Source: Eledone cirrhosa (lineage: Eukaryota). Taken from it: 64,000 nt of DNA. Numbering within the stretch: the stretch's first letter is position 1; every line of letters begins with the position of its first letter. Positions 1 to 53,046 of the stretch are shown piece by piece. The notes under the pieces are model-generated. The model saw nothing but the letters and a program-made list of their open reading frames with translations, was not told the DNA's origin and ran no database searches. Position numbers and translations under genes: made by a program. Where the stretch lies: contig OZ024754.1 of the NCBI GenBank assembly GCA_964016885.1, forward strand, positions 2,418,001 to 2,482,000, written 5' to 3'.

Positions 1-2327
1 TACATCCTCATAAATGAGCTGACACATCGCCAAGGATGTAAGCAGATGACATTCTGTTTGTCGGGGTTTTAATATCATATACACTCTAGCACAGGCGACC
101 CTCTCTCATGTAACCCCGTTTAATCTAAAGCCATATTATGACTTTTCCTGCGGATTTTCTCGAGAATTGAATGTCTCCCCTCTTTGCTTCTCCTGCCAAT
201 CCAATCAGTTAAAGATATTGCAATATGAGCGTACTGCGAGGTCCCTACAATTGACCAGAATATTTGAAATAACATAATTGATGTTGTGAGACCCCCTACT
301 AAATATTTTGAATAACATAATTGATGATGATGAAGAAAAGAGTCAGGACCCCGACGGATGAGCTTCCGGCCGTTTCGACAGCTAGATCTAGGTCGATAAA
401 ATAAAGTACCAGTGCATTACTGGTACTTTATTTTATCGACCCCAATAAAAACACTTTCCCAAATTTTGCCCTACCATTTTTGATATTGATTCTTGCCACA
501 ACAAGCTCAACAATTTTGGGAGAGGGGAAAGTCGATTAAATCGACCCCAGTGTATTACTGGTACTTTGTTTTCAGATAGTAAAGGAACGTAACCCTATGT
601 CATATAGTTTGTTGTTCGACCAATGCTGCTAATTCACTCCCCATCCTTACCATCTTTAATATTATAAATAAGACATATTACATATATGATGAGACAATCT
701 ATGTATAAAGACACATCTTCACACACCTTCGATCACAGATCTGATCGATCAGGACTGACCTATGACACAAACAACTATTTTATTTAATATATTGAAAATA
801 TATTCTTCTCTGTGATTTATACCATCATTAATACATTGTCCAATGTCTGACCTCTGGACATGGAAGCTACGCTATCTCTATTTTTTTACCACAATTATAT
901 ATGCTCTTTCATTACGCAACACTCTAAATACAAGGAACTATGTCTCCCTCTCTTTATAAATTCCCACAATCAACAACACCAGCACCACAAGAGCCATCAA
1001 CACCAGCACCACAAGAGTCATCAACACCAGCACCAACACTACAACAACTACATACACCACACCCTCTCAAGCAGTCATTATATGCCGTTCGCCTTTATAG
1101 CCATCACTGACCTCTAGGTTAGACCTTCTGAAATATCCATATTTGCTTCAGTGAACACATTCATACACAAACCTTCAGATCAACAAACTCATCGAGTTCT
1201 GCGCTAAACACTTACGCCACGGTTGGGACTATTTAGAATAATGGAAACGTTTTTTTTTTTTTTTTATGGCAACATGCACAAGAATATATACACAATCGTA
1301 CTGTGAGGGTGGGGAACACGTGCACGCATCTAATCCTACATATATATATATATATACATATATATATATTTGGGGAGGGTCATATATTGATATATGTATG
1401 TATATATATAAATATGTATATATGTATCAATATATATATATATATTGTTTTTCTAAGTGTACATACAAATGCATGAAAACTGATTGAAGTAGCTAAAAAA
1501 ATATAGACTGACTTACAGATATATGTATGATTACATAGAGATATTATTAGATATATTGGTAGTTTAATAGATAAACTGATTGTTAGATTGAAGAGATAGA
1601 TTACTGCATAGATTGAGAGGTGGTGTCTTCACCATTCCATTGTAATATTCTTATTAATAATGTAGTCATGAATCACAGCCAAAAACATCAACAATTGTTA
1701 TAGAAAGTGTATGTTAGATGTCATAAGTACACTGCAAGAGATATGTTCGTTTATCTTCAAGCAATTACACGTCCACCCTAACTCTCATATAAAAAATATA
1801 CATATATCTTTCAGTGTGTGTACGCATGTACGTGTGTGTGTGTGTATATATAAATATGTATGTATACATAAATATGTATGTATATGTATATATATATGTG
1901 TGTGTGTGTGTGTTATAGCTGAGAAATTAAGTATGTTTATTGTGAATACATACTTTTAACTATCATGCACAGAATTTCTTCTTCAAATTCAGTAGAAAAA
2001 AAAAAAAACATCTTTGTAATGGACAATAAAGGAGTAGAGGATTCATTTAATAGATTGGTGGGTAGGGAATTTTTCGTGGAACACGTATATTCTAACACAC
2101 TTACACACACACACCCACACACACACATACACATGTTATGTGAAAAAAAAATTAAATGAAAAGTAAAGAAAAAAAAATTAAATGAAAAATAATAAACATG
2201 AACAGTTCCCAAACCCAAAACCATCACAATCACTACAAACAAAAAAAATATATTCTATCGATAAATGCCACACTATCAGATCACCAATTTATATTTATCT
2301 ATCCTTTGACTTGTTAGAAGCTTTGTA

Positions 2328-20004: not shown

Positions 20005-20080
<76 letters not shown>

Positions 20081-20083
<3 letters not shown>

Positions 20084-20264
20084 CGAGTAGGACTCCGACG
20101 GCTGAGTTCAAGCCGTTTCGACGGCTAATTCTGGAATTAGCCGTCGAAACGGCTTGAGCTCAGCCGTCGGGGTCCTACTCGTTCCTGTCACCCACTCTAC
20201 TACCCTAAGTATTGAGTACTTTGGTGCGTTATGGTCCAACTGGTTCCTTACCACATTTCCTTCG

Positions 20265-20266
<2 letters not shown>
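20081..20266. mobile_element. Palindromic half-hammerhead element (family E)
   Basis: Inverted arms surround gacggctaattctggaattagccgtc. The right arm reads GAAA CGGCT TGAGCTC AGCCG TC GGGG on the plus strand, and the left arm is a near-identical mirror. It is embedded in (TA)n. Confidence 0.7.
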
Positions 20267-20504: not shown

Positions 20505-20612
20505 TAATAATTGTTTCTACTGTTGGCACAAGGCACAGCAATTATCCCAGTGTATTACTGGTTCTTTATTTTATCGACCCTGTAAGGATGAAAGGCAAAG
20601 TTAACCTCGGCG
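20505..20612 (-). mobile_element. SINE 3' half
   Basis: It is the reverse complement of the family body and tail. Confidence 0.8.
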
Positions 20613-21066
20613 ATGCACGGGGTGTCAAATTTTCATTACATTTATTGAGATGTTACGCGCGTCTCGCGATTTATCAGCTCATGGTTCGATCTGTATCTAT
20701 CGGACCCGACTCTGGAATACATGTCTTTGTATATGCACGTCTGTGTAAGTTTGATTAGCTTACATCAGTGACAAATAAAGAAATTGTTATCAATAATATT
20801 TCAGCCACATTTTATTTTACTTTATTGTACTTACACTGTGTGATTATATTTAGAGTTTTTACATCCACCTCTCTCTAGATTTCACCCCCATTCATCATAT
20901 GTGAGGGTTTTATGTTTTTACTTTACCTCAATGCCACAAATATATTCCAACTGCTATTCATAGCCATTAAATCCATCACCCCCTTCTCTCATTCTCATCG
21001 GATCTATTATAATATCTTCTGCTCTTACTGTCTACCCCTTCTTTCTTTCAGCTACGACGCACATAT

Positions 21067-21768: not shown

Positions 21769-21769
<1 letters not shown>

Positions 21770-21970
21770 ACGAAGGAAATGTGGTAAGGAACCAGATGGA
21801 CCATAACGCACCAAAGTACTCAATACTTAGGGTAGTAGAGTGGGTAATAGGAACAAGTAGGACCCAGACGGCTGAGCTCAAGCTGTTTCGACGGCTAATT
21901 CTGGACTAAATTTAGTCCAGAATTAGCCGTCGAAACGGCTTGAGCTAAGCCGTCGGGGTCCTACGTGTTC
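21769..21970. mobile_element. Palindromic half-hammerhead element (family E)
   Basis: Same family, with the long arm on the left and the centre gacggctaattctggactaaatttagtccagaattagccgtc. It has (TA)n flanks. Confidence 0.7.
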
Positions 21971-22559
21971 ATATATATATATATATACTCATAAAGGTAC
22001 CCTCATCGATCCTAATGACGAGGGCTCCAGTTGTTCTTATCTACGTTTGGCTGGTCTTTACGCAATCTAGTGACATTTTTAGGGACATTCATCTTTCCCA
22101 GTGAGTGTCAAAGCTGGCCATTTGAATTTCAGGTATACTCTATCGAATAGGATTCCAAAGAGTTTCCATAGAAGAACTCGACATTGAAAAGAGATTCATA
22201 AGAGGAAGATGATTCTATATATACAGTAATATTTTTCCGAACAAGAAATCCTTTATCGGCCATACTTTCACAAATTCAGCCTACAATTTCCATATACTTG
22301 GAGTAGCATAATTTACAATGGACAAGTTTTCCGGTGCGATCTCACTTAAGCCTTCTAAAGAGTTGCCAAATCTGGTGTCAATGGGATTTTAATTTTTTCA
22401 AGATTTATAGAATAATTACCATCTATGTTAATACTAGAGGTATATATTTCTCATTTTAATTTACATATGTTTCACATTGTTTTCGTTTACTTAATAACCA
22501 CATATCTTTTTGTGTACAAATGACAGTATATATAATTTAATCCTATACTTTGTAGGTTT

Positions 22560-45726: not shown

Positions 45727-45730
<4 letters not shown>

Positions 45731-45912
45731 AGTTTCAGGCCCCCGACGGCTGAGCTCCGGCCGTTTCGACAGCTAGTTTGGATCTAGCTGTCGAGATGGC
45801 CGGAGCTCAGTCGTCGGGGTCCTGACTCTTTTCATATTACCCACTCTACTACTCCAAGTATCGAGTACTCTGGTGCGTTATGGTCCACCTGGTATCTTAC
45901 CACACCCTCTTT
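45727..45912. mobile_element. Palindromic half-hammerhead element (family E, variant subfamily)
   Basis: The centre is gacagctag...ctagctgtc. The left arm on the minus strand reads GAAA CGGC CGGAGCTCA GCCG TC GGGG. The tail is the same as in the other E copies, and a single-arm relic is at 335-391. Confidence 0.65.
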
Positions 45913-45921
45913 GTATGTATG

Positions 45922-49422: not shown

Positions 49423-49424
<2 letters not shown>

Positions 49425-49641
49425 CGGAGGAAATGTGGTAAGGAACCATGTGGACCATAATGCACCAAAGTACTTAATACTTAGGGTAGTAGAGTGAGTA
49501 ATAGGAACGAGTAGGACCCCGAAGGCTGAGCTCAAGCCGTTTCGACGGCTAATTCTGGACTAATTAGTCCAGAATTAGACTATTTAGTCCAGAACTAGCC
49601 GTCGAAACGGCTTGAGCTCAGCCGTCGGGGTCCTACTCGTT

Positions 49642-49645
<4 letters not shown>
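49423..49645. mobile_element. Palindromic half-hammerhead element (family E)
   Basis: Same family, with a small extra duplication in the centre and (TA)n flanks. Confidence 0.7.
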
Positions 49646-52676: not shown

Positions 52677-52721
<45 letters not shown>

Positions 52722-52833
52722 ATCATTTTGTATTGTTTAGCCTTTTATCTGTCTCCACGTTATATATATATATACATATATGTATATATATATAACGTGG
52801 AGACAAATAAAAGGCTAAACAATGCAAAATGAT

Positions 52834-52873
<40 letters not shown>

Positions 52874-53046
52874 ATCATTTTGCATTGTTTAGCCTTTTAT
52901 CTGTCTCCACGTTATATATATATACATACATATATGTATATATATATATATATATAAATATATTTAATTAGATATTTATACTATGCTATGTATTGAGTAC
53001 CTTACTTATTGTGGTTACCCCCGAATAAACTCGGGATAAATTTATA

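Follow-up and report, generated by a model that had tools for sequence, protein, structure and literature searches.

Palindromic half-hammerhead insertions in the Eledone cirrhosa genome are probably doubly 5'-truncated copies of a Hydra-clade Penelope-like element

Twin priming, as known from LINE-1, uses two primers on one RNA and results in an inversion. Junction palindromes and inverted pLTRs are known for Penelope-like elements (PLEs; PMC3846280, PMC8557442). The Hydra clade comprises C-terminal EN+ PLEs that target (TA)n (Craig et al. 2021, PMC8557442) and are marked by an RWK motif, the change of DKG to DKT, a CxCx5C linker, and CxxC and CxH around E and N (PMC8557442). Among the hammerhead ribozymes of PLEs, U3-A8 is a described variant (PMC4209133), and the function of PLE hammerheads is considered unclear by Craig et al. 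(PMC8557442). In the anole Poseidon element PAc, two internal reverse transcriptase (RT) start sites bound the tail and both target strands are extended; RT runs off 5'-truncated templates, and the template 5' end sets product length (Frangieh et al. 2024, PMC11167929). In the accessible text of that paper, no RNA-seq reads end at the anole PLE hammerhead site, and hammerhead cleavage is dispensable in vitro (PMC11167929). As for transcription, an Inr/DPE promoter lies within Penelope of D. virilis (PMC2377424), the Drosophila Inr consensus is TYAGTY (PMC6483594), and in LINE-1 and SVA the cap leaves an untemplated G as its signature (PMC4859970).

The DNA analysed here (the window) is a stretch of 64,000 nt from Eledone cirrhosa (contig OZ024754.1, positions 2,418,001 to 2,482,000). 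It contains five related loci, all found as described in the initial annotation: four complete copies, each sitting in (TA)n, and one single arm (Table 1). Every complete copy consists of two head-to-head arms reading GAAA-stem III-GTC-GGGG. The short-end arm stops at TTCC^TAT (also TTC(C/A)^TAT; the caret marks an end or a cut), approximately 42 nt past the G of GAAA, and the long-end arm carries a further tail of approximately 80 nt, which ends in TTCGT^TAT. The arm had been read as the 3' half of a PLE type I hammerhead with a GTC triplet and a GAGCTC loop, and the full parent ribozyme described below confirms this. The CTGANGA half, which had been reported as missing from the copies, has no match in the five loci on either strand, and the parent-type core YTGANRAG is likewise absent from them; set against a type I hammerhead, the mini element lacks the 5' core half.

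Table 1. Features of the half-hammerhead loci in the window.
Feature	Position	Strand	Description or basis
Short-end arm, half hammerhead	20080..20119	-	GAAA at 20119 (minus strand); end TTC(C/A)^TAT in (TA)n
Inversion junction	20120..20145	.	Two truncated copies of helix II 3' strand and loop II, head to head
Type I hammerhead 3' half	20146..20172	+	GAAA, stem III with GAGCTC loop, GTC, stem I GGGG
Stem I internal loop, distal stem I, PLE 'tail' of ~80 nt	20173..20266	+	End TTCGT^TAT
Second mini insertion	21769..21972	-	Subfamily as at 20080; both arms reach about -21/-22
Mini insertion, older CCGG-loop subfamily	45727..45915	+	Parent helix II compensatory (CAGCTAGAT/ATCTAGCTG)
Mini insertion	49423..49645	-	Templated duplication at junction, 60-nt spacer
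Single short-end arm, CCGG-loop subfamily	about 335..388	-	Sequence

The terminus TTC(C/A)^TAT of the arm at 20080..20119 is shared by long parent copies, and this arm would be a cDNA primed at a first tail site, about +42 from GAAA; the TTCGT^TAT end of the segment at 20173..20266 would be the second priming site. The predicted cut in the element at 20146..20172 falls after 20168. At the junction, the two arms are truncated about -12 and -16 from GAAA and do not form a native stem II. The symmetry axis had been taken for the stem II hairpin itself; the central hairpin is instead made by inversion, 'gacggctaatt' being an inverted copy of the 3' strand. Nor does the axis always lie at one place, as had been supposed, but in a zone 11-22 nt upstream of GAAA.

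Other repeats are present in the window. Another short repeat, at 52716-52839 and 52838-52911, has two arms that meet tail to tail at a (TA)n centre, and a third copy adjoins them; this repeat possibly represents the termini of some other element that targets (TA)n. Yet another repeat end (ctatgtattgagtacc...), at 52979-53040, weakly resembles the PLE tail, and a repeat end of this type flanks the mini insertion of the genomic copy L055 on both sides as an inverted pair. Pieces of an abundant repeat (atcgaccc...aaggatgaaaggcaaag), which we take to be SINE-like, are found at 389-570 and 20540-20620.

Genome-wide counts were taken over the 3.0-Gb genome, with reversed sequences as control. The 27-nt arm has 24,224 exact occurrences, the sister-variant arm 10,910 and the CCGG-variant arm (the type at 45727) 4,204, and head-to-head arm pairs with a spacer of at most 30 nt number 11,099; the reversed control gave 0 in all four counts. 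The abundance of the palindrome family is far above chance. A subfamily marker agrees between the two arms in 10,806 of 11,040 copies (97.9%) and is discordant in 234, against an expectation of 51% agreement and 49% discordance if arms were drawn independently; part of this agreement may come from the subfamilies having had separate periods of activity, or from one arm being repaired by the other. Most junctions are distinct (46 in 49 copies of one sample, 108 in 125 of another; both samples leave out L001-L050, which were picked by similarity or motif, and the 49-copy sample additionally leaves out L171-L190), and the recurring ones are shared by up to 5 of the 125 copies. Every subfamily tested has long parents. 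For the CCGG variant, the parent is present at the ribozyme level. The AGCTGTC subfamily appeared 'parentless' (2 parents among 100 listed), a pattern artefact, and has long, ORF-intact parents that differ in a stem II base.

The parent has an ORF encoding an RT plus a GIY-YIG domain at the C-terminus, and ends in a full type I hammerhead. In L112, an ORF of 710 aa is followed by a 3' UTR of approximately 1.1 kb, the full hammerhead and the tail; L193 and L204 also carry the parent ORF. Its motifs include RWR, SDKT, the RT core YRDD, CNCPDRSIC (CxCx5C), CNLC..EE..LLNK..CKH and NVIY..AYIG. The single ORF with RT and GIY-YIG, the RWK/DKT/CxCx5C/CxxC-CxH motifs and the insertion into (TA)n are those of the Hydra clade, and the parent is identified as a Hydra-clade PLE by motifs and architecture, Hydra-1_Obim having been compared by eye. 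The Naiad clade was dropped as parent identity, as domain order and motifs disagree. Pfam and PDB sequence searches with the parent ORF were blank; Pfam applied to 17 aligned homologues gave an RVT_1 match in one and a weak GIY-YIG match in one. Homologues of the ORF are widespread (403 matches, 35-52% identity).

The insertions show the architecture of PLEs, with partial tandems (pLTR), an inverted 5'-truncated copy and a tail at one end only. In tandem copies, which have a period of approximately 3.5 kb, the tail leads straight into the 5' UTR and ORF, and is thus the head of the next unit. Long two-arm copies have one short and one long end, as do the minis, in all 18 scorable cases (from 28 loci, the pairs of which were hand-picked as long). 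Minis and long two-arm copies share their ends, and the mini insertions fit PAc biochemistry. Young tandems with a period of approximately 3.54 kb are found at L193:3278-5635 and in L315-L318; their open frame already starts in the ribozyme, 68 codons preceding the first Met, and the near identity of these copies suggests recent activity. A second, more distant PLE family, which has a Hydra-like endonuclease region, is joined to or adjoins arms in L067, upstream in L069, and in L126.

A 5' half of the form ACCCC-YTGANAA-G..CGGCTA, located upstream of the arm, occurs 3,552 times in the genome. Among 65 distinct full ribozymes, the core is TTGANAA in 48, CTGAGAA in 14 and of another type in 3; core pair 3-8 is U3-A8 in 48/65, C3-A8 in 14/65 and other in 3/65, and all four bases occur at core position 7. 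A search for a parent with CTGANGA had been suggested; a parent does exist, but its core is mostly TTGANAA (48/65) or CTGAGAA (14/65), and such a search misses it because the core reads YUGANAA, the U3-A8 variant. It yields 21 matches, 20 of which were read and are junction variants or chimeras, with no true parent among them. In L033, L037, L039 and L041, the half arm is fused with a CTGANGA region from what seem to be other PLE families; these chimeras were found by a pattern that selects for them and are no evidence of a preference.

The 65 distinct copies feature the type I core Y3UGANR8A..GAAA..UH and three helices. In one young natural copy, the hammerhead is the predicted minimum-energy fold without constraints. 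An alignment of 26 hand-picked copies has 88.6% of cells paired, and helix II includes three pairs with two-sided changes (covariation score 0.140, reached in 0/500 shuffles; the 26 sequences are related, and the shuffle figure is not a probability). No covariation was seen for a pairing between loop I and loop II, which was sought by eye. In long parents, the 5' strand of stem II reads G-N-T-CGGCTA-TTT; stem III has 5-6 bp, and loop II approximately 33 nt. An Rfam scan of the window had no hammerhead family among the 150 matches listed of 702. Self-cleavage of the parent ribozyme is putative, with indirect evidence in the 206 insertions that end at the predicted cut site.

The ends of the palindrome arms lie between 11 and 22 nt upstream of GAAA, with their centre at the A (-18) of a conserved TYAGTY in loop II; the arms stop before the 5' strand of stem II. 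Among 96 position-ordered arms, 81 stop at most 24 nt from GAAA, none at 25-55, and 15 beyond 50. In a sample of 250 arms, which leaves out L001-L050, arms are lost most steeply between -17 and -22; of the 33 arms that match to -22, only 2 continue past it. The edge is not sharp to a single base, with ends scattered between -11 and -22, and an apparent match in the stretch -19 to -22 may be templated, A-tailed or due to overlap with the partner arm. In the CCGG subfamily, which has a different upstream sequence, 26 of 30 arms stop in the same zone (by inspection). On the question of whether breakpoints are random, the ends are clearly non-random and cluster in helix II/loop II. To this extent, the initial annotation is supported; simple fold-back in stem II fits poorly, since the arms stop before the 5' strand of stem II and either arm may be the longer one. 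In long copies, the longer arm is the tail arm in 10/18 and the short-end arm in 8/18 (up to 3.2 kb longer), which excludes simple fold-back and rules out a fold-back in which the tail arm always comes first.

Additional features of the long copies point to a template end. The 15 long arms belong to 10 insertions, of which eight have a long partner, two have none seen, and none has a partner ending in loop II. Among tail-to-5'UTR copies, 14 of 22 independent cases pass loop II and 8 stop there, compared with about 15-20% passing at the first pass; a binomial test that left out six jump-type copies and L328 counted 2 stops in 15. The full upstream ribozyme is carried by 16/25 tail-to-5'UTR junctions. 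The lack of mixed short/long insertions, the fact that either arm can be longer and the passage of loop II in tail-to-5'UTR copies favour a template end over random stalling. Seven junctions jump from -15..-21 into the 5' UTR or ORF of the element itself, which indicates that the fixed end lies on an ORF-bearing RNA. Only 7 loci have a jump that leads from -18 to the cleaved 3' end, 1-2 of these precisely at GTC, and few full-length copies start at -18.

TYAGT is conserved across subfamilies within an otherwise variable loop II, and TYAGTY is identical to the Inr consensus, which is, as a caveat, that of Drosophila. A TATA-like TATTTAAA lies near -29; the CCGG subfamily does not retain it. Position -18 is followed by C in 13/30 loci of the GTAC subfamily, where the template would give G; in 100 listed arms of this subfamily (by eye), the following base is G in 62, C in 22, A in 14 and T in 2. 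The signal is weaker in the main subfamilies, with an additional C after -18 in only 15/90 arms, 5 of which are explicable by the partner arm. The loop II end probably marks where transcription begins within the ribozyme. The alternative of a 3' splice site at YAG^ in loop II was dropped, as there is no constant exon after -16/-18. In L069, L074 and L080, truncation of the long arms recurs within T-rich sequence some 420-490 nt upstream of GAAA, which may be another hot spot, of the slippage type. Direct units of approximately 200-260 bp, in which loop II jumps into the 5' UTR or the ORF start, occur in L303/L304, L307, L309, L310 and L312; these short units are of retrozyme-like size and lack the ribozyme 5' half.

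A second class of ends coincides with the predicted cut site. Of 892 palindromes with very short centres, the first 50 were read by eye, and both arms end CCCC^GGGG in 18 of them. Genome-wide, both arms end exactly at GUC^GGGG in 206 loci (TT subfamily 170, CC subfamily 36), compared with 4 control loci in which both arms are at least 3 nt longer, with at most 8 nt between them. Five cut-site loci whose surroundings were read sit in (TA)n and show the short and the long end typical of the family. Parents are U3-A8 in 41/41 cases in the TT subfamily and C3-A8 in 16/19 in the CC subfamily, and the cut-site class accounts for 2.7% of stumps in TT vs 0.76% in CC (odds ratio 3.6, p 7e-15), a difference that may stem from subfamily age or expression. 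Unlike at -18, the bases added at cut-site ends are A/T in 18/21 (by eye). The class is likely the product of run-off on ribozyme-cut RNA, and as such a fossil of cleavage in vivo; the collapse of larger palindromes would be unlikely to favour exactly the GUC^GGGG bond.

The palindromes are, with reasonable probability, dead-end, doubly 5'-truncated insertions of the Hydra-clade PLE, which arose by twin priming on one RNA whose 5' end is likely the capped loop II start. Transcription would start at the A of TYAGTY (-18) within the ribozyme of the upstream pLTR, and the head of the mRNA would then carry the ribozyme 3' half alone. The endonuclease would cut (TA)n, and both target ends would prime at the two UAU tail sites near the RNA 5' end. 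Both cDNAs would run off that end, either the cap (major class) or a 5'-OH (minor class), and would be trimmed and end-joined head to head to give stumps. Priming on read-through or circular RNA would yield long inverted and tandem copies, and RNA already cut at GUC would yield the shorter stumps ending at GGGG. Cleavage of the half-ribozyme in trans by a separate 5' half, which had been suggested for the mini element, is possible for the parent RNA. Cleavage may also be confined to read-through RNA. A further, rather unlikely step is that the 3' half at the mRNA head and the 5' half at the far end of the 3.5-kb RNA (or on two RNAs) might assemble a split hammerhead that cuts off a capped 41-nt leader and switches the mRNA to a circular or uncapped transposition template; the tens of thousands of stumps would then be a genomic 5'-RACE of both forms.

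Twin priming as outlined above could also operate on an RNA whose fixed end is not a capped start, but is set by an endonucleolytic nick at Y^A in loop II, or by a nick in the cDNA loop. Y^A bonds are labile, every subfamily seen has U^A or C^A as its -18 bond, and a nick explains the correlated arm stops and the jumps equally well. Nevertheless, C is the commonest non-templated base at -18 (GTAC subfamily), whereas uncapped cut-site ends gain A/T, and the conserved loop II motif is an exact match to the (Drosophila) Inr; a nick is, in our view, unlikely. Random stalling of RT at the folded helix II/loop II or slippage along the U-tract, after which the cDNA would snap back or join a second stalled cDNA, is quite unlikely. 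The position of the end zone inside a conserved hairpin, and the poly-A/T runs and templated insertions at junctions, are consistent with stalling, and junction palindromes of rotifer PLEs have been interpreted as self-priming (PMC3846280). However, stalling accounts neither for the absence of mixed insertions among the 10 with a long arm nor for the 14/22 tail-to-5'UTR copies that pass loop II, and a subfamily without the U-tract has the same end zone; the short-end arms that are the longer ones in 8/18 long copies, by up to 3.2 kb, are impossible by fold-back.

The remaining explanations take the palindrome as an element in its own right. The initial annotation considered a self-propagating, non-autonomous unit of about 200 bp, and a palindrome of approximately 190 bp with an RNA that an intact partner cleaves in trans would agree with the very high copy number, with the recurrence of some junctions (up to 5/125) and with the existence of tandem units of approximately 230-260 bp without the 5' half (L303/L304). 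This is very improbable, because junctions are mostly unique (108 distinct in 125 copies), arms are concordant, and the subfamilies checked have ORF-bearing or long parents, including the seemingly parentless AGCTGTC subfamily, whose long parents are ORF-intact; moreover, both ends of the minis are identical to those of long copies. An ordinary DNA MITE with a chance likeness to a hammerhead would likewise be short, palindromic and flanked by TA. The minis, however, lack terminal inverted repeats around a unique middle or a fixed internal sequence of uniform length; the palindrome is at one end and the tail is asymmetric. Their sequence is continuous with an RT-encoding PLE, and as the parent already refutes a MITE, the probability of this origin is close to nil. 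Rather than a new mobile element, the mini is a by-product left by a transposon of a known kind.

Under the preferred reading, twin priming on a capped RNA, the genome appears to hold a run-off record, with about 200-300 insertions at the predicted cut, fewer of them where the core pair of the subfamily is mismatched, and over 11,000 insertions that end at a second point within the ribozyme resembling a start site. Thousands of stumps likely record the making and cutting of PLE RNA in the animal. If confirmed, this would be sequence evidence for cleavage in vivo and for a PLE promoter inside its own ribozyme, and would give a simple reason for one family littering the genome with palindromes. 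The same counting of ends is applicable to any PLE-rich genome. Searches of the open-access literature gave no description of the palindromic PLE family found here, and no report of a PLE start site within its own hammerhead or of insertions ending at the cut site.

Twin priming in LINE-1 gives an inversion, whereas here both cDNAs copy the same stretch and a palindrome results; the extra G that marks the capped 5' end in LINE-1 (PMC4859970) may have its counterpart here. Animal non-LTR retrozymes are, like the stumps, small PLE-derived hammerhead repeats, as described in the portion of the source available (10.64898/2026.07.22.740005). They are direct tandems with complete ribozymes (10.64898/2026.07.22.740005), whereas the stumps are inverted, carry half a ribozyme and were made individually; given inverted halves and mostly unique junctions, the stumps are not non-LTR retrozymes.

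The minimal hammerheads of PLEs (Cervera and de la Pena 2014, PMC4209133) have in common with the parent ribozyme the type I topology, the U3-A8 covariation, G10.1-C11.1, a long helix II, a palindromic loop III and opposite-strand pairs from truncated copies. Compared with the hammerheads described there, stem III has 5-6 bp here and the ribozyme is predicted to be stable as a monomer; moreover, the loop II of approximately 33 nt contains an Inr-like motif, and most genomic copies consist of the 3' half only.

With the Hydra clade, as covered in the accessible text of PMC8557442, the parent shares the single ORF with RT and C-terminal GIY-YIG, the RWK-type and DKT motifs, CxCx5C and (TA)n targeting, together with the 3'-end hammerhead, the inverted 5'-truncated copy and the one-sided tail. 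The hammerhead and tail of the parent family are absent from the supplement of that study, and the family is a different one. For instance, Hydra-1_oBim has a ctgaagag core and a short helix II, in contrast to the U3-A8 core found here (PMC8557442). The unit is approximately 3.5 kb long rather than '<3 kb', the tail approximately 80 nt rather than 30-40 (PMC8557442), and, in contrast to the elements described there, the great majority of copies are stumps ending inside the ribozyme. Anole PAc (Frangieh et al. 2024, PMC11167929) also has two internal RT starts flanking the tail, extension of both strands, an AT-rich target and uncleaved RNA as template. While no reads at the hammerhead site are reported in the accessible text on PAc (PMC11167929), here a genomic class ends exactly at that site, and the main class has another fixed point as its end. 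What is new here is that the arms end at two discrete template positions.
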